Shown: positions 17,064 to 58,788, numbered from the whole stretch's first letter. The stretch: DNA of 58,788 nucleotides, filler included, from Sluysia triapertura (GCA_046118255.1; 4 parts of 4 records of this genome joined end to end with filler, not necessarily neighbours in it), one strand, 5' to 3'. Program-made: numbers and translations. The notes: generated by a model from the letters alone, not told the origin.

Positions 17064-17065
<2 letters not shown>

Positions 17066-17114
<49 letters not shown>
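17066..17114. repeat. (AAT)n microsatellite
   Basis: Direct reading. Confidence 0.95.
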
Positions 17115-17115
<1 letters not shown>

Positions 17116-18960
17116 TAATATTAATAAAAATTCATAGCAATAAATTAGTCAATAGTCCAAATATTTGTGTATATGCTTAAAAATTCTATTTATGTAAATG
17201 CTTAAAACGTCAAGTTCAATAACCTTTGAATTGGTATCTTCATGAGCATCAATTTAATATATACTTTACTTATATTTAAACATCGGAATATTTAACTTTA
17301 ATTTTAAATTATAAAAACTAATTAATATAACTAATTTTTACGTTACGTATGTTGACGTGCTTCGTAACCCTTAATCATAAGAATACTAATAACACTCGCC
17401 ATTGTATACCAATAGTACACTATACTAATTCTAATATTAATTTGTCCATGAGTAAACATTTTTCATTAAGCTATCAAATTAATTTAATTAATTAACAAAT
17501 GTACTATAGTATTTTAACAAATAAAACCTTAGAAATGGTTATATCTTCGTATCCTTCGTTTTGATTCAAATATTTTATACGCTTATTTTGTTATTACAAT
17601 TCATCATAATTCCTCAATGATGTTTATTTTATTCTATTATCATGAGTCATATCCCTTATATTTCTCCTTGTCCCTAGCTAATCCCAACATATACATAAAC
17701 GCAATATCTTCTAATATAAATTAAAATTAAAATTATAGAAAATAAATATAATTGTGCATTTTTATTAAATTATTTCGTTAAAATGTTTAATATTTATGTT
17801 AAACATTAATTTTTTATCAATATTAAAAGGCATACAGTAAAATGAAACTACTAAATCATTCACAAGTCAAAACAACTTGTAAGAAACTATTAGAATGTTT
17901 TGATAGTGGCGCATTACTTGACTGATTGACAACACTATTATTATAAAATAAGTTATTGAAATATCATCTAGTAGTATAATGTAATACAGATCTGCAATCA
18001 ATCTAATGGCATCATAAACAAAAGCTTAAAATAGTTCCTCAGACTTTCTTCTAGTACAATTGTAAGAATTTTCTTTGAACATTACAATCTATAAATTCAT
18101 AAATAATGAATATAAAGCCACAATTACAATGAGTTCTTAAGACTATTAGTTGAATCAGTATTAGTTTTACTGGAATTTATTGAATCTTTATTTTCCCCAT
18201 CCTGTTTTCTTAATTAGCAAAATCATCATCGACGTCATATTTTGGCGTTAAATGATCATCAAAAGATTCTGAAGTTTCAGTATTATTTTCATGAGATCCA
18301 CTACTTCAACACTAATCTTCTAATGTGGTTAGAACTTTTACATTGTCGCGTTCCTCTTCTGATTTTGTTAATAAAACCAAATGTTTTACTACTGTTGCAT
18401 ATGTTCTATCACAACCATTCGATTCCTGCCACTTTCTGAAAGAAACTGATGCATCTACGTAAGCTGCTGAATTGCTGTTAGATTCATTTAGCATTTATAT
18501 TACACTGAACAGTTTTATACTAAATATTATTACACTGATCAGATATTACACTGAATAATTCTAACATTTGGAGTTTGATTCCATCTTTCTGAAGACAATT
18601 CCTTATTGTATGGATTGTGGTGGCCCAACTCATTATCCTAAATTTCGTTATTCATAATACATCAACATAAACAACTGCTCAACCATATAAAATTTAAATC
18701 ACTTAGTACATTAAAATTCACTAAACTCATATTAAAAAATAAAAATTCTAGTGTTTTTCTTAACTTAAATCTATACACTGCAAATTATCTGAGAAGTCTG
18801 TCCGCCTAATATATACGCTTTACATCACTATTGGAGACCTACTATTAGGTTTTCTTAAATATATTAACTAACTGTTTACTTCGAATTAACTTTTAATTAC
18901 TTCGTACCACAACCATTTACTAGGCGTTGTTCAAATAAAGCTTTATATTTTACAAATTGC

Positions 18961-19101
18961 GCAACCGGTATTAAGGTGTTGCTTTGAAAATATATTAGTA
19001 TTTTAGGAAATTACGCAACCCGTATTAAGGTGTTGCTTTTTAAAAACTCTTCGATGAATTTATATATTACAGAACCAGTATTAAGGTGTTGCTTTTGAAA
19101 A
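18961..19101. repeat. Three spaced direct repeats, core GTATTAAGGTGTTGCTTT
   Basis: Cores at 18968, 19022 and 19078 (spacing 54 and 56 nt) with variable AT-rich spacers. Confidence 0.9.
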
Positions 19102-19165
19102 TGAATTTTAGATTAATAAAGAAAAATTACTCAGACGACGTAAAATATATTACAATGGCGTTAAG

Positions 19166-19240
19166 CTCCTGACACCATTTTGTAGAGTTGGTTTCTTGAC
19201 ACCATTTTGTAGTGTTGTACTCATGATACCAATTTGGAGT
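19166..19240 (-). repeat. 27-nt-period triplication of an LTR-end/PBS unit
   Basis: CTCCTGACACCA (19166-77), TTCTTGACACCA (19193-204) and CTCATGATACCA (19220-31), each followed by (T/A)TTTG. Confidence 0.85.
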
Positions 19241-20563
19241 ATTACTATTATTGTAAAAGGTCTTAGATGGATAAATAATTAGGTATAAATGTAATGATTT
19301 AACTACTTTTAGTCTTTTGTCATTTAATATTAATATTAGCTCAGAGTTTAAACATATATATGTCGAAAATTTCGTTTGCTAGAAAGTTGAGGGCAAAATA
19401 ATTTTTAAAAGATACAATTCTTTTAAATTTAGTAATATTGATAAAAAAGAAAGTATTCATAAAACACGAATAATTTATTAATTTGTTTATGAAAGTTAGA
19501 TAAATACGAAGCTGAATCTTTATATTCGAAATTTTTGTACTGCATCCTCCGGAATAACATTGAAATCCAAACTGGAATCTAATCTGAAATAAGACACGAA
19601 ATTAAAAAATATATAAATCAAAGGAATAAAACTTAACTGTTATTTTTTGGGAATATCGAAGAAATTCTAGTTTCGACGTGATTTGGTTCTTACAAACAGT
19701 TTCCAAATTAAAATTTTCCGAAAGGGAATTAGATGATAAGCAAGCTGTCTCCGGTTTTGAATCGACATTCATATGGGGTTTGATGATGTTGTAGAAGTTG
19801 ATTTTGAATAGTATTTTGAATGATGTTTTGAAATTAAATTTTTAAACTGAATATTTGTTTTTAATGTATAAGCTGGATTTGAGGGCGTTTTATTAATTTT
19901 ATCGCGAAAGATAATGTTAAACGATAGCTTAAGAATTGAGAATGCATATGACGATTTTAACGGACAATTATTTGATCTAAAGTTTAGTATTTGGTCGTTC
20001 GGTACTTTTTTGCTTTATTAAATTTAACTGTCATGACACTTTTTATCTTATGAATTTTATAGTAATATTTAGAGTTAATGAAATAGTAATAAATATTGAA
20101 TCGATATTTTAAGTTAATCTTTATAATATACTTCATCTTTATAATCTTAGTAGAAATTTGAACATAAAACTGAAAGATTAAAATCGAGGTTTTAATATAA
20201 AAATTTATTGTTGAACAAACAAAATTTTCAACACAACGTTTTATTTCACAAATTTTAAAAAATTGGGAATTAACAACGACTACATCATAACGATCTTTGT
20301 ATCCAATTTGCCAACATTTCATCATCCAGCAATTCCTATGATCAACTAAAAAGTAGTTATATAAACAAATAAATTTGAAACTAACAAACTCGAAGTTATA
20401 TAGAAATGTATAAAAATTTACCGTGATCTCATTTACATCCTTGAGTAATGCTAAGACATAATGCGACTTAAATTCTGGTTGATTACATTAATGTAGTGGT
20501 TATCATGTTCGACTCCAACTAACTTGCGAACATCCGTCGGCATATTTACCACTTTATCAATTA

Positions 20564-20663
20564 NNNNNNNNNNNNNNNNNNNNNNNNNNNNNNNNNNNNN
20601 NNNNNNNTTAATTAATTAANNNNNNNNNNNNNNNNNNNNNNNNNNNNNNNNNNNNNNNNNNNN
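20564..20663. other. Artificial contig linker 44N-TTAATTAATTAA-44N
   Basis: Exactly 100 nt with a six-frame stop spacer; identical structure at 34720 and 45689. Confidence 0.98.
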
Positions 20664-21646
20664 AAAACCGAAAGCCGGACATTTCATTGTAAATTTATCT
20701 AAATTGAATTTAGACAACAATAATGTAACATTTATTGTGTTATTGAAAGAAAAAGAAAGTATTTATTTTCAAACGGGTCTTAATATTGAAGATGTCGACA
20801 CAGTTTATGTATATAACTCAAACAAAATTTATAATGAATTGTCCAGAGTTCGACAAACGAATACCATCTTCTTTAGCCAAATATTTTATCCGTCGTTGAT
20901 CAACTTGTTCTTATTATTATGCTTGTTATATAAATTAATATATTGTGTTGATTATGTTTTCGTAAAGTTTATATTAGTTGTTAATTCGGGTATTAAGCCC
21001 TTTTTGTTAATGTTTAACCTTATTAATTATTTTCATTTAAACGTTTCTAATGTTTTTAAAAGAAAAAAATATCAAGTTATTAATAGTAAAGTAAAGTATA
21101 TGAAATCACCCACCGCTCTTCATAAGTAATAGTTTATTCGTGTTTTATTTATTAAATAGTATTGTTAATTTATTATAAAAAAAATATGAGGTATCTGATA
21201 CTTTTGAAACAGGGTATATTTATGCTGCGTAAATAAGCCAAAATTATGCTCATAAATAACTTAATTTAGAGGTATGAGATCGGCAAATAAGTGTAAATTT
21301 TCTAGGATGAAAATCAATGGAATCTTACACATGTTAATAATTCACTTAAAAAATGCTTGTAAGCAGGATAGTTCGAAGAAAATATTTAAATTTTATTGAA
21401 ATGTAAGATTCTGAGAATAGAAAATATCTAAAAATTGAGTTATAAATTATTAAATAAGTACATTAAGCAGTCGCGTACCAAGGTGGTGTCCTTACCACCC
21501 CCCTTTGTTCTACCATTGACATTAAGTATTATTTTATAAAAGAACTTAAACTAAATTTATAAAATGATATAGACAGTTACTAAAGGTGGTTTAGATGTTA
21601 GTATGGATAATAAACATTTTATAAAAATTATAAATATCAAACTAAC

Positions 21647-21879
21647 TAATCCCCAAATGTTTTAAATACTTCAGAAATATATTCTTTCGTGGCTAATTCA
21701 AGTTTCTTTTTTGAATTTTCCGTCAATTTGAAAATTCTTATTGTATCGTTTGTTGAATAACGCTTGAATCCTTTTCTATGATTAACCAAAGTATAATTTT
21801 CTCTAACCAAGTGGCATTTTGATTCAGGAACTTCAATTAAAAGTTCAGAAGATGTAGCAGGAGTTATTAGAGACACTTC
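21647..21879 (-). CDS. MSH6: MSH6-like exon G (lever/clamp region)
   Basis: EVSLITPATSSELLIEVPESK...YTLVNHRKGFKRYSTNDT...; AG/GT flanks, phase 0 to 2. Confidence 0.85.
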
Positions 21880-22470
21880 CTACAAATAAAAAGAAATTGA
21901 AAAGAAAATATGTATGCAATTTTCTTTACCATATTTTAAATTAATATTTCGTAATGATATTTAACAAATCTCAAATCGTTGTTTCCTACTAAAACAGGTA
22001 CTAAAATAATGGATCTATAATTATATAATTTAATTAATTTTGTTTTATTTTTTGCAGATGTATTGGTTATAAAACAAACCACTGTCCTTTAAATTTTATT
22101 AAAACTAAATTTATAAGTAAATTAAACGCGTTAACTCGCTAAAAAAATAGTTTCGAATTCTTGAAAATGCATGCGTTTTGCCTTAATATTAAATAAAATG
22201 ACCTGTGGCAGCCTAAATATTTTTCAGTGACCTCGACATCAAGGTAAAGAGGAAATAATTCTAGTTAGAATTACTGAAAATGTACAACCTATGCATTTGT
22301 AAAATTAAAAAGCTCCTATAATTTTGGAATTTTCATTCCCAAGAAATTGAAAACATTAATATTTTCTGTTATTATTACAATATATAACGTGGACAAAATT
22401 CATCATCGTCATCATCATCATTATTATTATTATTATCATTATTATTATTATTTAACCAAAAAATACTTAC

Positions 22471-28576: not shown

Positions 28577-30701
28577 CTAAAATTAATATTATTTTAGTTA
28601 CTTTTAACAATCAAAAAATAAAATACAAATGAAAATTCAAAATTAAATGAAAACAAAATTTATTATCAATGATTCAAAAAATTTTACAGAAAATATTTTA
28701 AGCTGTTTTTGTTACTCGAGCATAATATTTTGAAAAATTACTTTTTTCGTATAAAAAATGATTCTATAATTTAATTTTAGTTCATTATTTATTATTTTTC
28801 AATGATTGGAATCGTTTTTTTTGAAACTACTTAAATTCTAAGTAATTTAATTTATTTTATTTAAATTAATTAAATTAATCATGTGAACTTTTGTTAATAT
28901 ATTTATGTAAATTTAAGATTGAAAATTTATTGTGGGTTTCACTCTTATAATTATTTTTGTTCATCATTCAAATTAAACTACTGTGTGTTCATAGGGTGTC
29001 AGAAATTGTGACACCTTAAAAGTTACATTACTTTATGAACACCTTGTTTAGAGTCTGTAGTTCATTATTGAAAATAATTAACTGAAAATAATTTTGATTG
29101 GTTGGAAAAAATAAATAATGAATATTGTTAATGCTTAAGAAATAAGCAATTTACAAATATTTATTTTCATCACGTGTTTGTAGTATTGTGCTTTGTAAAA
29201 TATTTTAATTATTATAAAGCACAAAATCAGATTTTCCATATATTATTCTGCAAAATATCTAATTTATACATAAATATTAGATACGTAATTATTGATTTTC
29301 AATTAGAGTTATCAATGAAAAGTATTGATAAAGTATATTTTGAATACGATAAGACTTATTTATTTGTGCATAGTGTATCACATATCAATTGCAATATAAT
29401 ACTAAATTAATTAAAAGAAGCAGACAGTAATGTACTACTAATAATAATAAATAAATAAATAATATCCAGATGGTAAAACTAAAAGTAAATAATAAATTTT
29501 TCATAATACAAATGATATGTCAAAGTTATATATAGTTTAATAAATAGCTGTATGTAGGAGTAGAATTATATTGAAATTGCATGTAAAAATTAATATATTG
29601 TTAATAGTAATATAAAATTGTCCATTAAAATAGAATAGGAAGTGATTAACTATGGAAGAGTTATTATAGAATTAGATTATTGGTTAATAAAATTAGCAGA
29701 AGAAAGTGCTATATAAGGTGCTTTTCATTATACAATTTCAACAGTGAATTGACTTGTAAATATTTTTGAATAACGCTGCTAATAATATTTTTTGGATAAT
29801 ATCAATTTACTGAAGATTCCGATTGAAGTATAATGGTAATTAGTGAAATATTCTATTTAATCTAAAATTACACTTAAAATTTAAATTGCGAGTGGTTTGT
29901 TTTATCTGTTGTCTTAATTGTAGCTTGGTTATTTTATTCTGATTTGTCTTTTCAGACTAAAGGAGAATTTAAGTTAAAACATTAGATTTAAAAAATTAAA
30001 ATAAGCCACTTTATGTCTTACATGAGTAGAACGCTCATGTCCAGATATAACTAATAAATAAATTACGACACTCTCACATAAGAGTTACTAGACTGAAGAG
30101 ATTTTGCCTAACGAATTTTAGTACATAAATACTAAATAGAAGTTGAAATAAACTTTTTACTGTCTATAAACACGACAGAAATAAGATAATACCACTACAG
30201 TATAAGAATAACAATTTAAGAAACGTTTTCATACTTTCTTTCAATATACCTTCTAAAACCCAAACGGGCATCAGGAAAATAATCATAATAATGAACTTTT
30301 TAAAATTTCATAAAGAATATTAATTTTTTGTGAAATTATTGATTAAGTTGCATTAACGGTTAAAATGAAAGCATAAATGTAGTATCAAGAAAATAGAATA
30401 AAGATATTATGAGGATATTTTTATGTTAACAAAAGTTTCTTTTTTCTAAACTTATATAATTTATCTTTTTCTTTTTCTTAGTTAAAATTAGAACTATGTA
30501 CGACTCCTTCCAGTTTTATATTTATCATGATATACTTTTAATGTTCTTTGATATTTATATTGGTAAAGTCTTTATGTTTGCAATTCTGACTTCACAACTA
30601 CAGACGAAATCCGTACACAATATCCTAAATATTTTGAATCAAAAACAAATGAAGATTGGATTAAATAAATAATTGTCTAAAAAAATTAAAACAAAATTTA
30701 C

Positions 30702-31115
30702 CATTGTTTTTTGAATTGCATAATACGGTGTAGTATATTCGATCATATCTATTATTGGAATAATGTCAAATTCACCAAACGATACTAAATGTTGATCAAT
30801 CAAACAACGAGACAAATAAAAAATTAATGCACCATAACAAGACACACAATTTTCATATTCCCCAAGAACTTCTTTTGGTGAATTAGAAGCATCTTTAATA
30901 ACAATGCTATCTAACTTTAGTGGTATACCGCTTTCCTCACTTAATTTCGATTCAGGCGTGTCATTAAAATAATCACCTTCCAAAAGAAGATTTAATGTTT
31001 TCTCTGCTGTATAAAATTCAGTACCAGGATTAAGATATTCTTTAGAAACAGATGCTGTCACAGTATCTAAGACAAATTTTGTAACCGGTGTTAAATTGTT
31101 TTTTTCAATAAGAAT
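30702..31115 (-). CDS. MSH6: MSH6-like exon A (connector domain II)
   Basis: ILIEKNNLT...LNPGTEFYTAEKTL.LL.EGDYF...SCYGALIFYLSRCLIDQHLVSFGEF...KTM; 414 nt, phase 0/0. Confidence 0.92.
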
Positions 31116-32627: not shown

Positions 32628-33662
32628 ATGTCTTACGAGAGGTATAAAGATTTAAACAGTCTTAACGATGATTATGATTATGAAGTGTATTATTACGATG
32701 ATAATCATCATCAAACCCATACGTACCCAGAGTCTTATAAGTGTGATCATGTATCAAGTGATATTAAATTGAGAAAGAATCATTGTGATCAATTAGAAAG
32801 AATGCGAAGAGCTGGTATTAAAAGTAGTTATACAGAGTTACATAAGTATATTCAATCCTTGATTGATAATGAGACATTCCCTTCAGTAATGTTACTAAAA
32901 GTTGTTGAATTTCATGAGTTAACTAAAAGAAATAAAAATGTTACTCTAGAAAATAAATACCGTACAATGAAGCAACAACTACAATATCCTTTATGTCAAC
33001 GTAATACTGATAATAGCATCCCAACGTCCTTACCTGATATTTTTAGTTCAAATATTGTTCACAGTGTCGTTCTAAACGCAGCACGAACTAATCATTCAAT
33101 CTCAAATGTAATTCAAACGCCTAATATTTTGATTGGACCAATTAGTAATAATCAAATTTTTTCGTCTACTCATACTCATTCAAGATCATTTAATGTGACA
33201 AGTGATAATGGAAAATTTCATGTTGATAAATCACGTTTTATCAAATTCGCATTATGTCTCTATGAAACCTCAATTACAGGCCAATACGTCAAGAATGGAA
33301 AATCATGTCATTATGCACACGGATTATATGAATTGGTATCAATTCCTAGAGTCAATGCAATTAGTCTTCCGTACTCACAAATTGAAGGATACGAATTTAA
33401 GGTAACAACACAGAAGTACTGTCACAGTAAAAACTTTTATAAAGTAGTTTTTAATATTATTAAACATTTATTACTTTTTGTTCGAGATTTTTATAATTTT
33501 GTTATTCTTTTTAGAAAAATCAATGGTAATACAGTAATAGCATATTCAAGTGCGAATAAACATTCTTGGCCATCAACTTTTCATGTTATTAAGCAAATTT
33601 TTAATATTAGACTTTTTGGTTACATTAATAAACAATTTAGACGTTATTTTTGTTTAGTGTGA
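32628..33662 (+). CDS. Max/Mlx-like bHLH-zipper protein with a degenerate TIS11-type CCCH zinc finger
   Basis: 344-aa uninterrupted ORF. [40 protein letters not shown] parallels Max [49 protein letters not shown]...[14 protein letters not shown] parallels TIS11 SRYKTELC...YGAKCQFAHGLGEL. A possible intron lies at 33402-33514. Confidence 0.7.
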   Translation: [344 protein letters not shown]

Positions 33663-45788: not shown

Positions 45789-46196
45789 TTCAACAAAATA
45801 ATTGTTATTCAAGAAATGTTTTATAACTTATTGGTACGTGATGGAGATGAACCATTTCATATTACTCGAAATCCCAATAGGATACCAAGGTTAAATAATT
45901 TAGATGAAACCAAAAATTAAGGAAAATTACTAACTATGTTGAATCAAAATAAATGCAATTTTGATAATCTTAAAGTTAATGTGGACGATGTATATCAGAT
46001 TATTTTATCTAAGAAATAGAGACTTATCAAAGACGAATAATGGTAACAAGGAATTACACATTAATAGGATCAACTTGTTTCACGACCTTTTGACTAATAT
46101 TAGTATTTATTCTAGTGTAGAATTACTTAGTTGTTCTGTTAGTTATGAATTTATTTATATAATTATTTTTTAGTTGAATCAATTTTAGATTGGAAA

Positions 46197-47387
46197 ATGG
46201 AACGCTGGGCGGTCAGATTAGAAAACTTTTACATTATTTGTGTTTTTAATAAAAATCTTGTAAATATAAGTTTAATGTATTTTAACATTCTTTATTCAAT
46301 TAAACCTTATATAAATATAATATTATCAATAAACAACTCTTATATTAAACCAGATAATGAAATTATAAAAAAACAAGTATATTGTGATCATGGAGTTAAA
46401 AGAATTAACAATTACGAATCATTATATTAGTGATAGTACAAATTACTGTCACTTTAATAAAGAATTTAAGATAATCCCAGGGAATGTATTGAGTAAGGAG
46501 AACAACATTAAAATATTAAATCTTAAACTACGCTATTATAAATCCAATTCATCTAATATACTTTCATTTTCACATTCAGCTTCCAATACTCTTTACTCTA
46601 TTGAATTTGACAATACGCCCTCAACTTCACCTTACATCACAATCATAACCATATATCTTAACCTTCCTTGTGTAAAGATTAAATATAAACCTTCGATTAT
46701 AAAATCAATTAATAAATCAAATTATATAATATATTCGTTCATAAATCAGTACTACAAAATTTACACTATAAAATGTGCAAATTTATAAAACCGAATATCT
46801 CGAATTTCGTAATTATGATACGGAAGTTAGAGTCAAAGTATTACAAAATGTGTCTAAAACCACCTCGACTTAACTTTAGTTCTTGGAACGTACAGGAATA
46901 TTAAATTAATAATTTGGTAAACCCTATTGCTATATTCACTGATTTTTTGGCTAACGAGAAGCGGCATATTCTTGTCAGAATATATGTAGCACCAGAAAAA
47001 TTAGAACAATTACATTTTGCATTAAAAGGAACGCGGAAATACCTATCATTATCGGAAATACTGAAAACTATCCAGCTCTATTAATACTAATTTTAGCTGC
47101 AAAATTATTTATCATTGCTCTATCAATAGTTATACTAGTAATAATTATGTTTGTGTCGAACAGATGTAGATATCCGGGCTTGCCTCCAAATAATGACAAT
47201 GTTGGTCGGTATACTATTCCACATAGAAATATTTTTGAGCCACTACCAGGATTTCCACCTCATGTTTATGAATACGTAACAGGTAACTATTTACAATTAA
47301 TGTATGGCAGTTGGCAAATGATAAGCTCACAGTCAGTCATGATAGAATGTTTATATATGACGCGTATAGTTACGTACATACAAAATC

Positions 47388-47392
<5 letters not shown>
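46197..47392 (+). pseudogene. Broken coding-like region for a putative membrane-anchored protein
   Basis: Successive overlapping + strand ORFs. A hydrophobic stretch ALLILILAAKLFIIALSIVILVIIMFV lies in frame just upstream of the Pro-rich ORF 47147-47392. No family recognised. Confidence 0.35.

Positions 47393-47440
<48 letters not shown>
47387..47440. repeat. (AAT)n microsatellite
   Basis: Direct reading. Confidence 0.95.
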
Positions 47441-48229
47441 GATTACATTTAAATCACTTCAGAAAACCATATATGCAAAAGTAAAAAAAGAGTTGTTTGA
47501 CTAATTTGTGTAGACACGGATTGAATGTTAGTTAATATGCAAGATATCGGGTGATGATTTGCAATGGTCTTGTAGAAAATCAATTATTTAATATTACTCT
47601 GGAGTTAGAAATCGAATATGAACCAAATCAAAATTCGAAAATTATATCAATACACAATTATAGGATTATAACAAAACATAATATTTTAACTATAAAATTT
47701 CCAATGTTATTATATAGGGAAAGAAACAATTTCGTAAGAATAACAAACCCTTTAACGGAAAATGCTATATTAATTGGTTGCGAAATAAATAAAAAGAACC
47801 CACTCAAGAAAGATTTCGATGAACTATTTGACAAAGAACATCTCTATGCGCTAATACTTCCTAAAACTAGTATTCATCTATTTTTGCACCAGAACGTAAT
47901 CTAATATGTATTGAAGTATGGTGTGGCAAGGCCTTTTTAGATTTAAATATTAGAAATTAATTATAAATTTTCAACTTTTTTTATTTTAAAATTTATATTA
48001 AAAAAGTAAAAAACTGCCCTAATATAAAAAACAATTAAAATTTAACTTTAAAACAATTAACACAATATTAAACTTCTTAATTAATGAACTAGGCTTAAGG
48101 CCTTTTAAAGATAACAATTTTAACAAAATATCAACAAGGTTTACAAGTTTATTAACAAAACAATAAAATGTTGTAAAAACATATAATCATACTTATGATA
48201 ATTGCAAAAAGTTGGTGGCGGGTATAAGT

Positions 48230-51057
48230 TGTAGTGGACAACCTTTATAACTGTTAAATTTTAAAAGAAAAAATTAATTAAACCTTCAACACTTTGATAT
48301 TCACACACTTACTTCCTACACACTTACAAAACAGTTCATTTGCCTAAACTAAGCCAGATTCACAATCTCATAATATACAAACCACAGTTACATCTAATAC
48401 CATCAACTTACACCAACAGATCTATCACAAACATGTAACTCGACATTCATAACAACCAATTAATATCCACATTTGAAATTATCTACTTTACACCTTCGAA
48501 TCAATTACAACACCTTAAGTTCAACACTTGTCATTGTATGGTCACCAACAACACAATACAATACCATTCTAAAACATCAAATAAACAAATCACATAAAAC
48601 ATTGCACATTAAAATTTCAAATATACCAAGAGTTGTATTATAATTTACCTTTTCACATTTACCAAACTACTCTCTTCTAAATAGGCCTTTTATTCACGAT
48701 CTTCCAATATTCAAATGTCGTTCTCAATCATGAATTTAAATCACCATCTAAGAACTCATTCTAACATTCTCCATTTCATTCCACGACATAAATCATCTAT
48801 CTTATCTTGAAACGTTAACCACACATATAAATTCATTTAAAGCAATCTCTACTCAAAAATTTTAATTTCAAACACATTTTAAATTTATTGCAATATGTCA
48901 AGAAACCTAGAAGAATTAAAGGAAGATCGTGTGCAGTTTTAAAGAATTCAGCAATTTATGTCAATTAATAACCATAATAACCATTTTTTGTCGCCGTTGT
49001 TACAGAATCCAATTCAACTATTTTTTCAGATCTAGAATATGTTAAGAATTCAATGAAAGCGACAGAAAGATTGTGTTAAGAAAAAGACAAGAAATTTATG
49101 CAATTTTTAATATTTTCGCAGTAAAATAATATTAATAATAATAACATTGTTGCTATTATTGTTGTTATAAAATTTTATTAATTTAATTAATTTACTATAA
49201 AATAACAAAAATTGTTTCCACCATCACCATTGTTGACATTATTCATTACTGTCAACAGATTTATGTCAACACTGATGATGGCTAATCATTCATTCATATT
49301 ACTGGCCATCCAACCAGAATTAAATTTATTATATTTAGTTAAACAATTCTGGTTGGATGACCAATCACTGGTCATCATCTGAAAAAATGAATTAAAAAAT
49401 GAAAATATAAATTTTTGAACTAGATAGCAAAACAAAAATAAATTATTATTGTCTCTTGTTGTTATGTTATAGATATAGTTGCTCAAATTTCAAATGATAC
49501 ATAGCTATTACACTTACCTGAACGTATAGTTTATAATATGAAATTAAACCGTATACAAGAACAAAATGTTAATGCAGACTTTCATAAGCAAATCGAATGC
49601 AAAAACTCGGTTCAATTAATTTTAAATACCACTCAAGATGTTTATTCTGGTAAAATTAATGACAATCTCTCTTCAGTTGTTACCAATAAAAAGTATTAAA
49701 GCATTATTTTTCATGCTCAATTATCAAGAATGTTATAAAGTTTATAAATGTATTAATTCTAATTTAATATCTATTTTGGGCGTATATTCGTTTATGTATT
49801 CTAATAATGAATAAGTTGATTCACTTGATAATTATGAGTCTATTATGATGCTGTCTCCTATTTCTGATCTAGATGACTTAGAAAAATTGAAAATAAATTC
49901 TAGTATAATTATTGATTGTAGAGTTCATTCAGCGGTGATTCAAAATTTAGAACGTCACAATTTTATAAATACAATGGAACCTGTTTCTCTAAATCAATGT
50001 CTCGTAAAGTCTAGTTACTGTAATCGATCTAGTATTACGGATTCGAAATCGTACCCATTGAGTTACATTAGCAAATTAATGTATAATCTGGCTGAAAGAT
50101 TTAGTAAATGTATTTCGTTTAAGGTCAATGAACAATTTCTTTTATTTGTTCAGTTAGTTTTGCATCCATGTACTGATGTTTTCAAATCATCTTATAATCA
50201 TGAAACATGTTGTCATGTTCCAACTAACTTAGTTAGTTCAGACACCAAAACGAAAGTTGAAGATTGTCAAACTATTTCAAAGTAGTGATAATTGTTGTAG
50301 CTATGAACCTGCATGTTTCGGTAACGAATTTTTAAAATTGCATTGTTTTGATTATTAGAAAGTAAATTCATTAACTAGAGTTTTACATGCAACGTGTGCA
50401 ACACCAGTAATTACGTATATTTTCCTTCTTCAAAAATGTATTCAGTTATTCAAAAGTCTGTGCAATATTCATCATATAAAAAGACTTTCATCTATATATT
50501 TAGTAATCAATAATTTTGAAATTTTGTTACAATTGGATCATCTCTATGCTCAGAATTATCGTAATAAACCAAATGATATTAAAAAAATAAGACTAATGCT
50601 AAAGTTATGCGTTCATCTCTACAATCTCTACAATCTATTGGATAAACATAATGAATTCAAGGGTCATAAACGAGAAATTAAAAACTTAAATTTTTGTCTT
50701 ATTCAATTATTTTATAAGTTATACATACATTTTTCTTCAGATGATCCTTTTGAAGTGCAGCGGATTGGGATACATTAGGATACGGTATCAAAATTAATAG
50801 TTTTTGTCTCTACGTTAAATAAAAGTTTCGTATTTACTTATACGTTGTTTATTCTTTTATATAATTTGTTTAAAATTAAGTTATGTGGTATTAATAATAT
50901 AAGTAAAGATTGTATGAAATTTATCTTAAATTCTAAAAGAAGTTTTTACCAATTAAGAATAAGTTCAATAACGTATACACAAACATACTTATATCTACCG
51001 AAGAATAATTTTATAAATTTAAATTCAATTTATTTTAATTATAATAAAACCCCACCA
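48230..51057 (+). repeat. Putative 5' LTR (~2.8 kb)
   Basis: Starts TGTAGTGGACAAC and ends CCCCACCA 3 nt before the PBS. Shares TTCGAATCAATTACAACAC, AAATATACCAAGAGTTGTAT and CAACACTGATGATGGCTA collinearly with the 3' LTR up to ~49370. Homology beyond that point is not demonstrable. Confidence 0.7.
49845..50285 (+). CDS. Unknown 146-aa Cys/Ser-rich ORF inside the putative 5' LTR (part of a broken coding tract 49538-50778)
   Basis: ORF track, with flanking same-strand ORFs at 49538-49699 and 50524-50778. Confidence 0.45.
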   Translation: MMLSPISDLDDLEKLKINSSIIIDCRVHSAVIQNLERHNFINTMEPVSLNQCLVKSSYCNRSSITDSKSYPLSYISKLMYNLAERFSKCISFKVNEQFLLFVQLVLHPCTDVFKSSYNHETCCHVPTNLVSSDTKTKVEDCQTISK

Positions 51058-51060
51058 AAT

Positions 51061-51073
51061 TGGTGTCAGGAGT
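51061..51073 (+). promoter_or_regulatory. Primer-binding site, tRNA-Leu
   Basis: TGGTGTCAGGAGT is complementary to the ACTCCTGACACCA 3' end of eukaryotic tRNA-Leu(CAG). Confidence 0.85.
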
Positions 51074-51500
51074 TTAAGAGAACCTTGCTGTATCCTATGT
51101 AAGTCATGAAGCCAAGCCTTATTATTTATATATTTAAATGCATAAATTCTTTATGTAGCAAATGTGATCTTATCGTAGAGAGATATGCACATAAATATAA
51201 TTTTTATAATAAAAGTCTTAACAACAGCAATACACATATCTTTCGCGATAACTTTATAGACAAATCATATGTAATAATATAATTATACCTAAGATTGCTA
51301 CTAAAATCATTTTGTATGTAATGAATTCTTTAAAAATTGTAATACTATTATACCAACATCTATAGTTATAAATTCTTCCAATAATAATAACAATTATAAT
51401 AGTTACCAACAAAATACATTCACCAAGTCCATTAAATTTTTTAAATATTAAATATTTTTTAACATAATTCCAAGTCATTTAAAAAATCAAAAGAACAAAC

Positions 51501-53028
51501 ATGTTACTTTTCAATTACAAAACAACTCTTTTCATGTTACACCCTCACGTAATTCAATACGCACTAAGCATAAATAAAAGAAAACTAAATCTAAGAAAAC
51601 AGGAAAAACTTATACACTTAAACAGTGTTATCAAACCATCTGTAAACACAACATCTAACAAAAATGGTAATATCAGTCTACACAACAATATCATCACTCA
51701 ACCACTAAACAAAACATTTCCACCTTCACTATTCGAAACATATATTAAACATTCAGCGCAAGAGATTTCATACAATAACATTAAACCTCCACTAAAACAA
51801 CGAAACAACAAGAAAAACAATACACGGGCACAAAACTCCGATTTTAAACAATTAAAAGATACCACAATACAACTTCTGCTACCCAACACAAACAATGAAC
51901 AACTTCACGAAACACAAAACTATGCTATCAACTCTTCCAATAACATTGAACGTCCACAATATTTTTCAAATAGCGAAAATAACAACATGCCTCCACATAA
52001 TAATAATTCAGAATAATTAAAACAAAACACAACACAATTTTTACCACATAAAACGAACAATAAATCATCTTACAAACATCAAACTCAAAACAACTTCATC
52101 AACTCACCTCATAATCACAATCAGTACAAAACTCCATTGAAGCAACAAATATTCATACGTATAATAATGAAACCAAACAACTAACAAACCATACAACATC
52201 AACCTTATTTCTCAAAATAAACAATAAATCTTCTCACGACAGTAAAACACAAAAATCTTTTAAACCATACACCATACCTTTTGTCTGGACAACATGACTC
52301 ATAAAATTAATAAAATTTTAAGTTATAGGTTTTCTACTACCCCAACCACACCTCTGATTTACACTAAAAACGCAGTCCTAGACAAAAATAACAAAACAAA
52401 AAGGGGTAATCAACCACAAACTACTCTACATTATAAATCACAATTCACCTGGGCTCCTAATACGTATAAAATAAAGGATAAAAAATCCTTCGCTCAAGTC
52501 TGTAAACAAGGTCCCCAAATTTAATGTGCCATTATGGCCAATACAAATCAAAGGATCATTGAATCCGATTTAAAAAAGCAATTCCAAACAAATTAACACG
52601 TTCAAGGATGTATCGAAGCAATCATCCAAAAATGCAAATCTTAAAATCAATATACAAGACCAAAAGACCAGTAAGTCTAATTTCAAACAAGTCAATACTT
52701 CTAAGAATACACTCAATCAAACGTTAAAACATAAACAACAAAATCGTTGAACGAAATCAAAAACAATTCAATACTCAAAACAAAGAACAAAAAAATTATT
52801 CTAATAATCAGACAATTCAAGTCAAAAAATCAAACAAAACAAAACGTATTATTTCAAACGAAACCATAGATCAGAACAATCATATCAAAACAATAACAAG
52901 CCGCTCAATTCTCAAACAGAAACAAATTTTTACCAGGAACAATAATCGACTCAAACACGCCATTTGAGCGACACGTGTGCACTAACATCAACGCAGCCAC
53001 CAATTCGAAAACCCGAAATAACAAAACA
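51501..53028 (+). pseudogene. Long N/Q/K/T-rich leader ORF (fragmented) upstream of gag
   Basis: ORFs 51501-52016 and 52294-52524 plus intervening frames share a low-complexity composition and strand skew. Confidence 0.5.
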
Positions 53029-53214
53029 ATAAATATAATAATAAAATGCATAGCGTGCAATATAAATTCGCGCCTTAAAATCAAAACTCCCACCCTATTA
53101 CATAGGTTAAGTAAACACCCTCAGGCATGGTTTACTTATCAGGCTCAACCGTTATGTGATTACGAAATTCCACACGGAGCAATTATATCAGTTAATCACC
53201 AACTACCTGGCGGC
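53029..53214 (+). CDS. Ubiquitin-like domain ending in LPGG, in frame with the start of gag
   Basis: INIIIKCI...WFTYQAQPLCDYEIPHGAIISVNHQLPGG versus ubiquitin MQIFVKTL...[29 protein letters not shown]. Confidence 0.65.
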
Positions 53215-54080
53215 ACTGAACATGATCAATTAACAAATATCAGTACTCCTTCGTCATCTCAATTTTTCTTGGTCGATACTGGTTCTCCAAGCACATGGTT
53301 TTGGTTGCTGAAGCCATGTTCAAAACTAGTGCGATTAAACATCAAACTAAAAAGTTTAATCGCACATTAGCAATGTTGCCGCAGGAACTATTAGATAAGA
53401 TTAGCCCAAAAATTCAAGCGTGTATTGCTTCAAAATCTCCGTATGACGAACTCATGCAAATAGTCGTACACAATACCGCCCAAATTCGGAAAAAGTCTTT
53501 CAAAACTACTTTAAGGTACAAACATTATGTACCATTTCACCTTCCGAATTTTTGGCATAAATAAAAACGGACTTAGCACCCTTCGGTTGTGACATCGACG
53601 AAAATCGTGATGTTTTAAAAAGATTATTCCTCGATACTATGCCTCTTACAGTTCAAGGCATACTCGTAGGAATTCAAAATACTAAAATCGACGAACTGGC
53701 TAAGATCGCCGATAACATTATTGCTGTATGGAACAAGGACCATCAACAACCTCTGTACGCAATGAACGATTCTTCTTCAAACAGCCAGAAATACATAACA
53801 ACAACAATAACCAACAACGAAGCACAGAACCTTCTGTTACAAGTCTAAAATCTCACGAAGCAGGTCGCAGACCTTACAAAAATTTTATTCTCAAAATCAA
53901 GAGAGAACTCACCAACAAGAAGAACAAGTTCTCCCACATTCTCAACGGGTTCATCCAACTCAAATAAATCTATTAAAAATAAAACACCCTTTAACGGAAT
54001 CTGCTACTATAATAACAGATTCCAACAACAGGTTAAATCTTGCTTACTAGGATGTAGATTTCCAAACAAATCTACAAATC
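53215..54080 (+). pseudogene. gag: gag (capsid and nucleocapsid), frameshifted
   Basis: PSTWF/LVAEAMF...TKKF...LPQE...PYDEL, then LFL..MP..VQ.IL...IDELAKIADNI, and the knuckle GICYYNNRF....KSC..GC (~53996). These resemble CsRn1-lineage gag. Confidence 0.8.
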
Positions 54081-54269
54081 TACAAATCTAACAATCAAAA
54101 ACTTGTGCGTATACCATGCAAATTTTCAAAAAAGCTCCAAAAGATGCATGGATACTGCATCCACTTTAAACACAATTTAAAGTCCCCATCAAAAAACTGA
54201 AATTGCTAGACCGAAACACTTGGCAATTAATGGTATTTTCACTGTGCCGATCACTTTCACTGATTTCAA

Positions 54270-56910
54270 ATACTCCAAATTGGATTATCTAATTGACCTC
54301 AACGCTTTATCAGAAACACACCGCAGACATGTTCCTTTCTTACAGCAGCTAACGGAACAGCTATTGCCTGCTATGGCTCGAGACAATTACAATTCAAATT
54401 GTCACACTTCAATAAAATCTTCGAATGGACTTTTCTAATTACTGCAGTTCAACAACCGATAACAGGAGCCGATTTTCTAACCCATTACAACCTCCTAGTC
54501 GATTTCCACAACAAAACTTTAACACAGTCCTTCTAACACCTAAAAAATATAAAAATTAAATTAGAGGATCTCAACAGTAACAATATAGATCAATATTTAC
54601 AACAAATTCACCCCAAATTACTACTCGAACAATTCAATCCAGAATATGTTCCTAAATTCGAACACTTTATAAAAACTATACCTATACCACCATGCAGACA
54701 AAGACGACGAGAACTAGCTCAGAAAATACGTTCTCAGGCAGAGACAGAATTCCTTGAAATGGAAAGACAAGGAATAGTGCGACGCTCTTCTTCCTCATGG
54801 GCCTCACCTCTGCAAATCGTCAAAGAGAAAGATGGAACGTGGTGACTACAGAATGCTTAGTAAAGTCACTCTTCCAGACGCATATCCTATGCCACTCATA
54901 ACAGACATCTTTCATAGATTCACTGGTTGTACAATATTCTCATCAATAGACCTTGCAAAATCATACCATCAAATCCCAGTACATACTGAGGATATACCAA
55001 AAACAGCCGTAACAACTCCTTTCGGTCTGTTTGAGTATTTACGCATGCCTTTCGGTCTAAGAAATGCAGCACAAACTTTCCAGCGTCACATTGAGAAAGT
55101 TCTTCAAGGCTTAACTTTCACCACAGCCTACATTGATGATATCATAATTTCAAACGACACCAAACACATCTGGAACAAGTATTCCAACGACTATCCGACA
55201 ATAATTTATTAATTAAAATTAACAAATGTCAATTTTTCAAGAATAAAATAACTTTTCTAGGCCACAATATATCTGTTGACGGGATAGAACCACTGGAAAC
55301 CCGTACAACAGCAATAAGAGACTTTCCACAATCCAAAACAGTTACACAGATGAAAAGTTTCTTGGGCCTAGTTAATTATTGTCGACGCTTTATCCCGAAA
55401 CTATCAGAAATAATAGCACCGTTAACAATTCTATCATCGGGAAAGAAAAATCAGCAAATCAATTGGAATACTAAATCTCTGGAATCCTTCGAACAAACAA
55501 AACAAGAAATTATGAAGATGGAAAGTTTAGCATTTCCACAACAACATTTAACGTTCACCTTAACAAGTGACGCTTCAAATACAGCAATAGGTGCGATACT
55601 AACACAAAATCAACAAGAAACAACTCCCGTAAACTTTCTGCACAACAAACTAGATATTCGCATTGACCATGAATTACTAGCAATCTATCTTTCCGTTAAA
55701 CATTTTGAGTATCTGTTACTCCCAGCGCAATTTACGCTCAGAACAGACACCAAACCGTTGTTGCACATCTTTACAATTAAAAAACCCACTCCAAGACAAC
55801 AACGACACATCAGCTACTTGTCCCAATTCAACTTTAACATAGAATTCATCCCGGGACAAGAAAATGTGGTCGCCGATTTTCCAGTCGAGTTCCGGTCAAT
55901 ATTCACTCTCGAGGAGTTACAAAACAATCCACGATCTAGTCTAGAAATTTCCAAATTTTCAACAAAATCATCATTACAAAATGGAATTTTCTTTGACTAT
56001 CAATTATCTGGTACTTCTCGACCTGTGCTAGGACAAACGCTCCGGATCAAAGCTGTCGAACATATTCACAATATGACACATGCCGGAGCTAAGGCCACTT
56101 ATGAATAACTACACTCAAAAGTAGTATGGCCTTCAATGCGCCAAGACATCAAACACTGGTGTAAAGCCTGTTTGACTTGTCAATTGGTGAAAATACAAAA
56201 AAACATAAAATCTCACACGCCAACTCTTCGATACCATACAAATGGATATAGTCGGACCACTACCACAATCTCGTGGTTACATTTACATTTTAACTATATT
56301 GGACCGACACAGCAGATGGCCAATCAGATCATTTACAACAGACACCATATCCAGAATCTTAATAACAAACTGGATTTCACGTTTCGTTGTACCCAAAAGA
56401 ATTATCACTGATCAAGGAGCTCAGTTCGAATCTAGCCTCTTCAACAATTTACTCAAACAACTTGGCAGCGCTAGACTACGAACAATCTAATGGTATGATA
56501 GAGAGATTTCATAGAACTCTAAAAAACTTCTTGCGCGCATTATCAATAAATCATGATTGGATCGGTGCCTTACCCCTAATTCTATTAGGCTGGCGCAATA
56601 TCCCTCATTCTTCAACATGATATTCACCAGCTCAAATTGTATTAAGAACCAACACCAGATTACCCTTTGAATTATTCGAAAATGATAATCCTACAGAAAA
56701 AAATATATTAACCTCCTTTGCGGCAATATTTTAATGACCTAAACAAATCAACACGTCACAATGAGGTTCCTCACATTTTTATACCAAAAAACATCTTAGA
56801 CAGCAAATTCGTGTGGCTCAAAACAGAAAATCCAAAATCTCTTCAACCAAGATACACCGGTCCCTACAAAGTCACTCAGTTTAATCAAAACCTGCAACAA
56901 TGCTAGTTGA
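54270..56910 (+). pseudogene. pol: pol (protease, RT, RNase H, integrase), frameshifted
   Basis: PR: YLID.., GADFL.HYNLLVD. RT: SSSWASPL.IVK, DAYPMP, IDLAKSYHQIP, MPFGLRNAAQTFQR, YIDD. RH: SDASNTAIGAIL, ELLAIY, TD.KPL. IN: H...H..C..C, DIVGPLP, TDQGAQFES, SNGMIERFHRTLK. Confidence 0.96.
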
Positions 56911-57037
56911 AGAATATTCTCATAATTCAACAACAAGAAAATCAGTAACGTTTAACAAAACCGCTACCTTTCTAAACGAATCCAAATGAAGGTACCAGAT
57001 TCATTTTAGAAATAAACACATATCGCTTCGCGTCTTC

Positions 57038-57049
57038 AGAGGGGGCTGA
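57038..57049 (+). promoter_or_regulatory. Polypurine tract
   Basis: AGAGGGGGCTGA immediately before the TG of the 3' LTR. Confidence 0.85.
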
Positions 57050-58788
57050 TGTAGTGGCCAACTTTCATAACCACTAAAAATTTATTAAAAATCAAATTAT
57101 TTTCACAATTTCACAACAGCTAAATCACAATCATATTCAACACTACCAATTTACATTAACTAATTCACCAGAAATATTACTCGACATTCACAATAATCAA
57201 ACAACAAACTCATTCGAAATAAACCATCTAATACTTTCAAACCCTTCATTTTACACTACGCTTTGGAAATCAACATTTAATAATCGATAACATTCATTTA
57301 ATAGTTTATTTGCTTTAACCAAATTACAATCATAATCACATAACACATAACACATAATTACATCTAATTCCATTCTACAACACTAATAAATCTACACGAA
57401 ACATATAAAACACCTACTTCACAACTTCGAATCAATTACAACACTTCAAACTTACTACTAATCCATGCATAATCACCAAAATTATCAAAAACATCAAATA
57501 GACAAACCAGACAAAACATAGTATAATAACATCTTAAATATACCAAGAGTTGTATCATAATTTTTCTTCTTGATTCATTAAATTACAACCTTCTCAATAA
57601 GCCTTTTACCCACGATATTTCAATACGTAAGTCTTGTTTTCAAATACAAACCCTAATTAAATTCGAAAAGCTCATATTAACATTCTTTATTTCAATTCAA
57701 GACTCAAATCATTATTATATCTTCAAAAAGGTTAATTATACTTAACAATTCTTTCAAAACAATTATTATTCAGAAATTTAGTTTCAAATACACTTTAATT
57801 TAATTCAACACATTAAAATCCTTCAAGAAGTTTAGGAAAATCTAATACAGTTTTAAAGAATTCAATGAAATAGCAACGATGTTATCGTTGCAGTTCCATT
57901 CAGTTTTGTCAACTTTTATATTTTATTTAACTTTTTATATGTAAGAACCAAGAATGAGAAGATCGTGTACATTTTGTTTTAAAAAAAGAGAAAGGAAAGT
58001 TTATGTATTAATTCGTTTTTTTTCTTTAGTAATAATAACAATAACAATACTGTCGTTGTTATTATTATTCCCATTAATTAATTAATTATTATTATTAAAA
58101 TTTTAATGCATCTTATAAAGTAGTCACCACCATCACCAATGTTGACGTTATAATCATGACCATCAGTATCTTGACAACACTGATGATGGCTATCCTTACC
58201 TAATTTTGTTCTCCACAATTTAATCACCAATTTTTACATGTCACCCAATCAGAGCTGATATTGTTAAATGTTCTGTCCTGAAGCTCTGATTGGGTGACCA
58301 ATCAGCCATTATCGTACAAATACAATTTTATAATTTTTAATTAAAAAGTACAAAAGAGGAAAACAACACAAGAAGTAACGGTAACAAATTTTCAAAAAGA
58401 TACCAAAATTTACGAAACGACAGAATAAAAAATTTGGAGTATATACTATCGAAAACTCAAATCCTCTCGATCGCGGCACTAAATTAGATTAGTATTATAA
58501 CATGCTTTTGAAAGGGAAATTCGTTTTAAGTGAAATTTTTAAAGCCTATAATGATATATTATCATTCATTGATATGTCCAATGATGTTAAACCACACATT
58601 CATAACTTCCACCAAGAAATCGAATCTGATGAAACAAATCATATGGGAGAATTAAGAAGAATGATTAAAACCATTGATGATCCTAACCACTTATTATATC
58701 TTATTAATCTTACTTTAGATCCAGCTTTTAGTTATAGTTTTAATTCAACATGGTATTATCTTATGATAATTAAAGATGATTATGTTGT
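57050..58788 (+). repeat. 3' LTR (end not seen within the window)
   Basis: Starts TGTAGTGGCCAAC after the PPT; collinear with the 5' LTR to ~58305. Confidence 0.8.
58502..58788 (+). CDS. Unknown ORF, open to the window end, downstream of the 3' LTR hairpins
   Basis: ATG at 58502: MLLKGKFVLSEIFKAYNDILSFIDMSNDVKPHIHNFHQEIESDETNHMGELRRMIKTIDDPNH..., 95 codons without a stop. Not in the ORF track because it is unterminated. Confidence 0.5.
   Translation, partial: MLLKGKFVLSEIFKAYNDILSFIDMSNDVKPHIHNFHQEIESDETNHMGELRRMIKTIDDPNHLLYLINLTLDPAFSYSFNSTWYYLMIIKDDYV

Follow-up and report, generated by a model that had tools for sequence, protein, structure and literature searches.

Does a retrotransposon of Sluysia triapertura carry a protein gene inside its own long terminal repeat (LTR)? 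The question is raised by positions 48230 to 51073 of a 58,788-nucleotide stretch of DNA from this genome (GCA_046118255.1; parts of four records joined end to end with filler), hereafter the window. A first description, made without database searches (the sequence-only reading), had placed there a giant LTR with a gene lying between its promoter region and the primer-binding site (PBS). We refer to this gene as the cargo. The explanation that appears best as a whole, and that we hold with guarded confidence, is a decayed Ty3/Gypsy copy in which a gene of about 520 codons likely lies in a 2.8-kb LTR and is possibly a dead piece of a DEAH helicase.

The cargo gene spans positions 49538–51102 on the + strand. 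In this copy its frame changes twice, once near 49696 and once between 50233 and 50285, and three stop codons interrupt it (49812–49814, 50356–50358 and 50776–50778). The broken coding tract that the sequence-only reading had recognized at 49538–50778 was indeed recovered. Five breaks were counted on the + strand, as compared to 16.6 ± 2.4 in composition-matched Markov sequences (n = 300), none of which had as few. The – strand of the tract was not coding-like. Elsewhere in the window, equally few breaks were found in 5 of 192 background windows, four of them over two long host open reading frames (ORFs). The following segment, 50779–51060, had been taken for an AT-rich stretch resembling an untranslated region. 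It is open in the frame of 50359–50778, as was the case for 1 of 300 null sequences, and the earlier reading of the cargo tail was probably wrong. This last frame continues over the presumed LTR end and the PBS, up to a stop at 51100–51102.

Other copies of the cargo were found in contigs of one public sequencing run; this run is perhaps the window's own source, and the contigs represent other copies and not an independent sample. Across 49400–51400, 693 contigs covered 30 of 30 bins, and 525 of them were less than 95% alike. Among the 40 best-supported of 267 variable places, 30 fell in the gene, 2 before the ATG and 8 past the stop; these last ten were excluded. Differing letters occurred within all three cargo stops (in 23, 19 and 9 contigs), and most other contigs differed within each of them. 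The chance of such a coincidence is 30 in 200,000 with the 30 listed in-gene places and 0.043 with all 267 places. At the first frame change, loose contig ends and a one-base gap cluster. A contig from another copy, which covers 49290–49584 and differs there by 36 letters and 13 gaps, bridges the second of two hairpins in the LTR front (hairpin 2, see below) to the cargo start codon. Another contig links 49614 to 50744, and one divergent contig covers 51055–51286. Overall, the cargo tract is coding and multi-copy, and the stops that break it here are absent from the majority of the other contigs. The sequence-only reading had allowed for a private insertion, or for family copies devoid of an ORF at this position. 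Neither was borne out, because another copy bridges hairpin 2 to the ATG and because the stops differ elsewhere.

Upstream of the cargo, the LTR front (48230–49436, + strand) is non-coding and A/C-rich and presumably contains the U3 (unique 3′) region and the promoter. It starts with TGTAGTGG, which opens both repeats, at 48230 and at 57050, in agreement with the homology start given by the sequence-only reading. The front of the 3′ LTR (57050–58367, + strand) is a different variant containing the same two hairpins. The two fronts, aligned from 48289–49436 to 57258–58367, are about 70% alike over 1.1–1.3 kb; blastn blocks of 470 and 224 nt between them reached 70.9% and 69.2%, respectively. 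Break counts against Markov nulls gave no coding signal on either strand of either front, and a sense or antisense ORF inside the fronts was ruled out, as they are not coding-like. Within the 3′ front, 57102–57220 and 57300–57394 both match overlapping parts of 48330–48479, indicating a putative internal duplication in this variant.

Hairpin 1 (49221–49281) has arms conserved in both repeats, with 14 of 15 pairs identical and one pair broken in one repeat (z-score –4.1; 0 of 200 shuffles). Hairpin 2 (49307–49359) has a perfect 15-bp stem beside a word that we take to be CCAAT-like, and z-scores of –5.7 and –7.0, one per repeat. Both sides are changed in 4 of its 15 pairs and none is broken, a compensatory pattern; a covariation control, with two sequences only, reached just 30/500. 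Arm-to-arm correction of a palindrome could be an alternative source of these paired changes. In both repeats the hairpins are adjacent and of the size of microRNA precursors (49221–49359 and, in the 3′ repeat, 58130–58295). They might serve as palindromes of the promoter or give rise to small RNAs. Membership of a known microRNA or other RNA family was rejected, Rfam giving six matches, all sub-threshold, and a metagenome search with the hairpin pattern found no locus. Further 3′, a motif ending in the cargo ATG (49526–49540, + strand) recurs in the 3′ repeat at 58489–58504, with 10 matches out of 12 when one gap is allowed. This score was equalled by 1 of the 929 other ATGs of the window. 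Apart from this motif, the DNA 3′ of the hairpins aligns between the two repeats at chance level (129 of 200 shuffles as high).

Where does the 5′ LTR end? Its presumed 3′ end (51050–51059, + strand) was placed by sequence inspection on a weak inverse of the 5′ start. It is followed by the TGG-led PBS-like motif TGGTGTCAGGAGT (51061–51073, + strand), which we presume to correspond to tRNA-Leu. The distance of 2.8 kb from LTR start to PBS given by the sequence-only reading was thus found again, the PBS-like TGGTGTCAGGAG beginning at 51061. PBS-like words (TGGTG, TGGC[AG][CG]) are absent from 48230–51060; they occur only at 48213–48216, before the repeat, and at 51061. Reverse transcription copies all RNA from the cap to the PBS into both LTRs. 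Therefore, since the only PBS-like site comes after the cargo, it is fairly probable that the cargo gene is part of the LTR. The embedding of a gene in what is likely a 2.8-kb LTR is probably a variant of accessory-gene capture.

Summed contig depth is 16,000–22,000 across 48135–48988 in the 5′ front, 13,000–18,500 on the 3′ front and 500–1150 over the cargo. The front is therefore about 20-fold higher than the cargo, a rough hint and not a copy number. In its 5′ half, the cargo has roughly double the depth of the leader, a segment situated between the PBS and gag.

Behind the 3′ front lies a second cargo ORF (58502–58788, + strand), cut by the window end. The sequence-only reading had noted it at the position equivalent to that of the cargo, and its 95 visible codons are indeed open, as in 1 of 300 nulls. 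The same reading considered the two ORFs not clearly homologous, and the comparison of the second ORF with three cargo pieces agreed, 396, 1577 and 1654 of 2000 shuffles scoring as high. The weak resemblance it had seen between FHKQIEC and FHQEIES is at chance level, because shuffles score equally high. Weak matches of the second ORF to ferritin-like EncB were observed (E 0.023 in NCBIfam, E 1.4 in the PDB), and a word-index homolog search over longer lengths gave no usable match. The ORF carries an acidic-histidine motif, DETNH. Its bin has a summed depth of 203.

The two LTRs of a single insertion are identical at insertion and then undergo neutral decay only. Here, the repeats share about 70% identity, one hairpin shows compensatory changes, and the second halves are not related to each other. 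The sequence-only reading had treated the two repeats as the LTR pair of one element; this is probably wrong, as they are too divergent, with four compensatory hairpin pairs and unrelated ORFs. The decay of this copy was calculated by hand at about 3% (about 9% at most) from its three stops, a stop arising in 290 of 4806 single changes. Decay of about 3% cannot explain a distance of about 30% between the repeats, nor their large indels, the paired changes in the hairpin and the lack of relation between their second halves. Therefore, the locus is likely a chimera, which may have arisen by recombination, nesting or misassembly. Very probably, the repeats come from two subfamilies of a family with one shared front and at least two different genes behind it. 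The roughly 20-fold ratio of front to cargo depth fits a common front with several subfamily-specific genes. As to the exchangeable cargo imagined by the sequence-only reading, different ORFs behind a shared front fit the idea, and may also reflect separate divergence of the subfamilies.

What does the cargo encode? No usable match was obtained in Pfam, PHROGs, NCBIfam, the ESM Atlas or PDB sequences, and the middle piece of the cargo had none in a word-index homolog search over near lengths. The large protein collections were searched with the cargo pieces other than the C-terminal piece, P0019. An exhaustive search of 1.84 billion proteins returned two matches, P0020 and P0021. P0021, a metagenomic protein of 347 aa from one short contig, matched the cargo middle with an E-value of 3.7e-4 (35% over 80 aa, across one cargo stop; 0 of 2000 shuffles). 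Of its three PDB matches, all weak, the top one was the unrelated MgrA (E 0.02), and two were RNA helicases, DHX35 and another one (E 0.41 and 1.0). With a DEAH comparison profile made of 12 bacterial HrpA/HrpB-type sequences, P0021 aligned colinearly over 238 columns (probability 23%, E 9e-4; 0 of 60 shuffles). The RecA1-end sub-profile and the RecA2 sub-profile were each matched on their own as well (0 of 1000 shuffles in either case). P0021 resembles a DEAH helicase in which the DEAH (motif II) and motif VI positions are both degenerate, i.e. a pseudo-helicase. The cargo middle matches the part of P0021 that is aligned with RecA2 motifs IV–VI. Through these two steps, the middle of the cargo may well derive from a DEAH helicase, namely from its RecA2 region.

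The likeness to DEAH/RHA helicases (HrpA, HrpB, DHX35) is that of the cargo middle to the RecA2-aligned part of P0021. The cargo differs from these helicases in having no detected RecA1 half, no arginine-rich motif VI and no direct profile match. No cargo piece had a Pfam match to RecA1 with Walker A and DExH motifs, and only 53 codons precede the RecA2-aligned piece. At motif VI, the residues that face the HrpA motif are dissimilar to it, in the cargo as well as in P0021. For the winged-helix/HA2 region, 306 and 341 of 1000 shuffles scored as high with the 12-sequence bacterial profile; the idea, formed by eye, that the C-terminal cargo piece is an HA2 region gained no support at this level. 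Nor was there support for the second ORF as a helicase N-terminus, since it had no match to P0021 or to the HrpA/B sub-profiles. Single-sequence AlphaFold models were poor (mean predicted local distance difference test, pLDDT, of 33.9 and 44.6) and therefore provide no test of the helicase origin. Fold searches with the better model gave no viral match at E ≤ 0.001 and, for the rest, only generic four-helix bundles. Relatives of pol and of the cargo yielded no locus in viral and metagenome contigs. Speculatively, a cargo without an ATP-binding half might be a non-catalytic RNA- or cofactor-binding protein, an RNA chaperone or a competitor of host silencing helicases, a role to which we give little credence.

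According to the favoured explanation, the hairpin front would drive transcription starting just 3′ of the hairpins, and the cargo would be the first reading frame of the element RNA. The gag-pol region would then need splicing or internal initiation, and reverse transcription would copy the cargo gene to both LTRs. It is an evenly balanced matter whether transcription would start near 49430–49500, which would place the gene in R/U5 (the repeat and unique 5′ regions). R/U5 is preferred to U3 because the stop of the cargo frame lies only 40 nt beyond the PBS. More tentatively, and with low confidence, the LTRs of this high-copy Gypsy family could act as gene cassettes, with a shared hairpin front, a giant R/U5, subfamily-specific captured genes (a dead DEAH fragment; perhaps a ferritin-like gene) and cargo swaps. 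Strand transfer between co-packaged relatives would then move cargo from one subfamily to another, because U3 and R/U5 are derived from opposite RNA ends.

Several observations weigh against the favoured explanation. A depth step would be expected at 51060, because of the two LTRs and solo copies. None was seen, the last five in-cargo bins having a mean of 547 as compared to 512 in the first two leader bins. No loose contig ends appeared at 51060 among the 6 of 195 rows listed, which skip 51012–51046. The terminal inverted repeat described by the sequence-only reading is present and weak, with 5–6 of 8 letters by inspection. Thus, of the claim that a gene is embedded in the LTR, a multi-copy gene between the hairpin front and the PBS stood, whereas the LTR end near 51060 was not confirmed. 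Each linkage mentioned above is carried by one contig, from a run that is possibly the window's own source, and none of the indels listed (12 of 27) corresponds to the second frame break. The 30 in-gene differences fall flatly on the three codon positions (12/8/10), with no purifying selection seen; such flatness is expected from decay of this copy, and the differences therefore do not show selection. As for the helicase origin, P0020 has a better E-value than P0021 and is rejected as a tandem-repeat artefact. The cargo alone matched no DEAH profile of the bacterial set. When combined with P0021, it reached a probability of 1% (E 0.057) against DEAH, and the combined profile found no helicase in the PDB. 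Finally, the N- and C-terminal pieces of the cargo match neither P0021 nor HrpA/B.

Other explanations have to be considered. It is doubtful that the gene, though inside the LTR, is encoded in U3, like sag of mouse mammary tumour virus (MMTV), with the RNA starting near the LTR end and the gene expressed either from a promoter upstream of it or, through splicing, from the 3′ LTR. A short R/U5 is the usual case. TATA-like words at 50858 and 51012 and AATAAA at 50818 and 51043 would suit such an arrangement, though words of this kind are common at this AT content. MMTV itself, in excerpts of PMC9412291, has U3 ORFs with their own U3 promoter. However, the cargo frame is open to the LTR end and beyond. 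A message ending in R would therefore have no stop, unless an earlier family stop was lost in this copy. We consider it improbable that the LTR consists of the front of about 1.2 kb only, followed by a cargo-PBS-leader block that is an internal or foreign module (an Ogre-like 5′ ORF or the end of another LTR), joined ancestrally and then amplified. Repeat homology does cease at about 49436, and the skew of the cargo is neutral, unlike that of the A/C-rich front and interior. Moreover, the depth of the cargo resembles that of the leader, with the absence of a step at 51060 already mentioned, and contig depth falls to 60 at 49400–49466 (an edge bin). Yet neither repeat has a PBS-like word or an inverse of the LTR start near 49436, the 3′ repeat likewise continues into an ORF, whose ATG is preceded by the shared motif, and the front is joined to the cargo in the contig of another copy. 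Were the block the end of another LTR, the gene would remain LTR-borne; were the LTR short, the case would reduce to a chimeric element with an additional ORF of the ordinary kind.

The two cargo ORFs might also belong to one fast-evolving accessory family, or be different parts of one helicase-derived gene, without any exchange. They are equal in position, strand and base composition (35/14/14/37 and 37/13/13/37), they share the pre-ATG motif, and the second one is visible for 95 codons only. Against this stands the lack of protein or DNA similarity above shuffles, though the non-coding fronts are 70% alike, and the failure of the second ORF to match P0021 or the HrpA/B sub-profiles makes a common helicase ancestry harder to hold. 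We therefore regard this possibility as quite improbable. Finally, the view that the cargo is a single host-pseudogene insertion in this copy, or a set of chance open frames, would suit a single-locus view and the near absence of database relatives. It is largely refuted and very improbable: the cargo is multi-copy, its stops are absent from most other contigs, the hairpin link exists in another copy, and none of 300 nulls reached its coding signal.

The interior of the element, only about 6 kb long, agrees with the Ty3/Gypsy assignment. A gag gene (DUF7041) and a pol gene, both broken, lie at 53226–57000 on the + strand, pol in the order reverse transcriptase – RNase H – integrase behind gag. 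Pfam matches in Gypsy order cover 53226–56487 (PF23055, PF00078, PF17919/PF17917 and PF00665), and the closest pol relatives show 45–46% identity. The element may belong to the CsRn1-like clade; of 17 pol relatives, one is named. A polypurine tract (PPT), AGAGGGGG (57038–57045, + strand), adjoins the 3′ repeat on its 5′ side, and this repeat starts with TG at 57050. The leader (51103–53225, + strand), between the PBS and the DUF7041 gag domain, is about 2.1 kb long, N/Q/K-rich and coding-like, with 12 breaks over 51075–53200 as compared to 21.6 ± 2.9 in nulls (0 of 300 as low). Its 177-codon frame (51483–52016) had no Pfam match. The leader is either an additional ORF or a gag N-terminus of great length.

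On the 5′ side of the LTR start, a coding-like multi-copy tract extends over 45790–48229 (+ strand), with a hydrophobic segment within 46955–47389. It had 13 breaks over 46000–48200 as compared to 31.6 ± 3.1 in nulls, a summed contig depth of 500–10,400, and no match in Pfam or PHROG. Its 3′ end, just before the LTR start, is the G-rich TGGTGGCGGG (48213–48222), possibly the remains of a PPT or of a PBS. The tract may be the interior of an upstream element that shares the repeat at 48230, or else a repeat into which the present element was inserted. Outside the element, the window is AT-rich, with a GC content mostly of 17–33%. It is eukaryotic, given a match to MSH6 at 30642–31115 (E 1e-13), within a host MSH6 exon at 30639–31115 (– strand). 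A 344-codon host frame at 32628–33662 (+ strand) contains an Unkempt-like CCCH zinc finger slightly under the Pfam cut-off.

How does this arrangement compare with known systems? MMTV, as far as excerpts of PMC9412291 go, has a protein ORF in U3 of the LTR with the promoter upstream in the same repeat. The cargo resembles it in being an ORF probably inside an LTR, with a presumed upstream promoter. In contrast, MMTV is a vertebrate betaretrovirus with a U3 ORF, and the present case concerns a Gypsy element with about 520 codons that run to or past the presumed LTR end and differ between LTR variants. Captured, family-specific extra genes swapped among lineages are described, in passages of PMC7264820 and PMC5408684, for the aORFs (additional ORFs) of plants and the ORF3s of bdelloid rotifers, the latter being of DEDDy, GDSL and env-like types (PMC5408684). 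In these passages they are internal, mostly between pol and the 3′ LTR, whereas the cargo follows the LTR front and precedes the PBS. Ogre LTRs of 1.9–6.5 kb, extra ORFs of unknown function in Ogre and Burro and host-like domains in Burro (extracts of PMC6431247) recall the probable long LTR, the extra ORFs and the possibly captured domain of the present element, except that in those extracts the extra coding belongs to the internal region. Burro interiors reach up to 25 kb, with a polyprotein bearing BIR, MATH and ankyrin domains; no such Pfam domain was found in the scanned frames.

Gene-derived sequence placed in the LTR and spread with every copy is known from Cassandra, Helenus and Ajax, terminal-repeat retrotransposons in miniature (partial text of PMC10886601). 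There, it consists of Pol III promoters derived from 5S or tRNA genes in short non-autonomous elements, unlike the protein gene accompanied here by gag and pol. Indeed, 5S- or tRNA-derived sequence was not found in the LTR, Rfam giving sub-threshold matches only and ARAGORN nothing in the element. Tapeworm Saci2 families have LTRs of 251–521 bp that diverge faster than the interior (extract of PMC12471100). An exact-phrase search of open-access titles and abstract starts, outside which lie Repbase-type catalogues and supplements, returned no protein gene in an invertebrate Gypsy LTR.

A protein gene just 5′ of the primer site is an unusual location for an extra gene of a retrotransposon. LTRs are usually viewed as non-coding regulatory ends, and LTR finders presume short matching pairs. 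A position of the gene in R/U5 would imply a first product of reverse transcription of about 1.6 kb and the translation of gag-pol downstream of a long ORF, both of which are unusual. Speculatively, a dead helicase fragment would be a plausible counter of a retrotransposon to RNA silencing. If the favoured explanation is true, a 1.5-kb LTR gene varying by subfamily would be a means, so far new, by which genes are captured and spread. Such a gene would be doubled at each insertion and would persist in solo LTRs after loss of the interior. Under the gene-cassette reading, held with low confidence, each insertion or solo LTR would also disseminate a complete unit of expression, which might act as a decoy against silencing.

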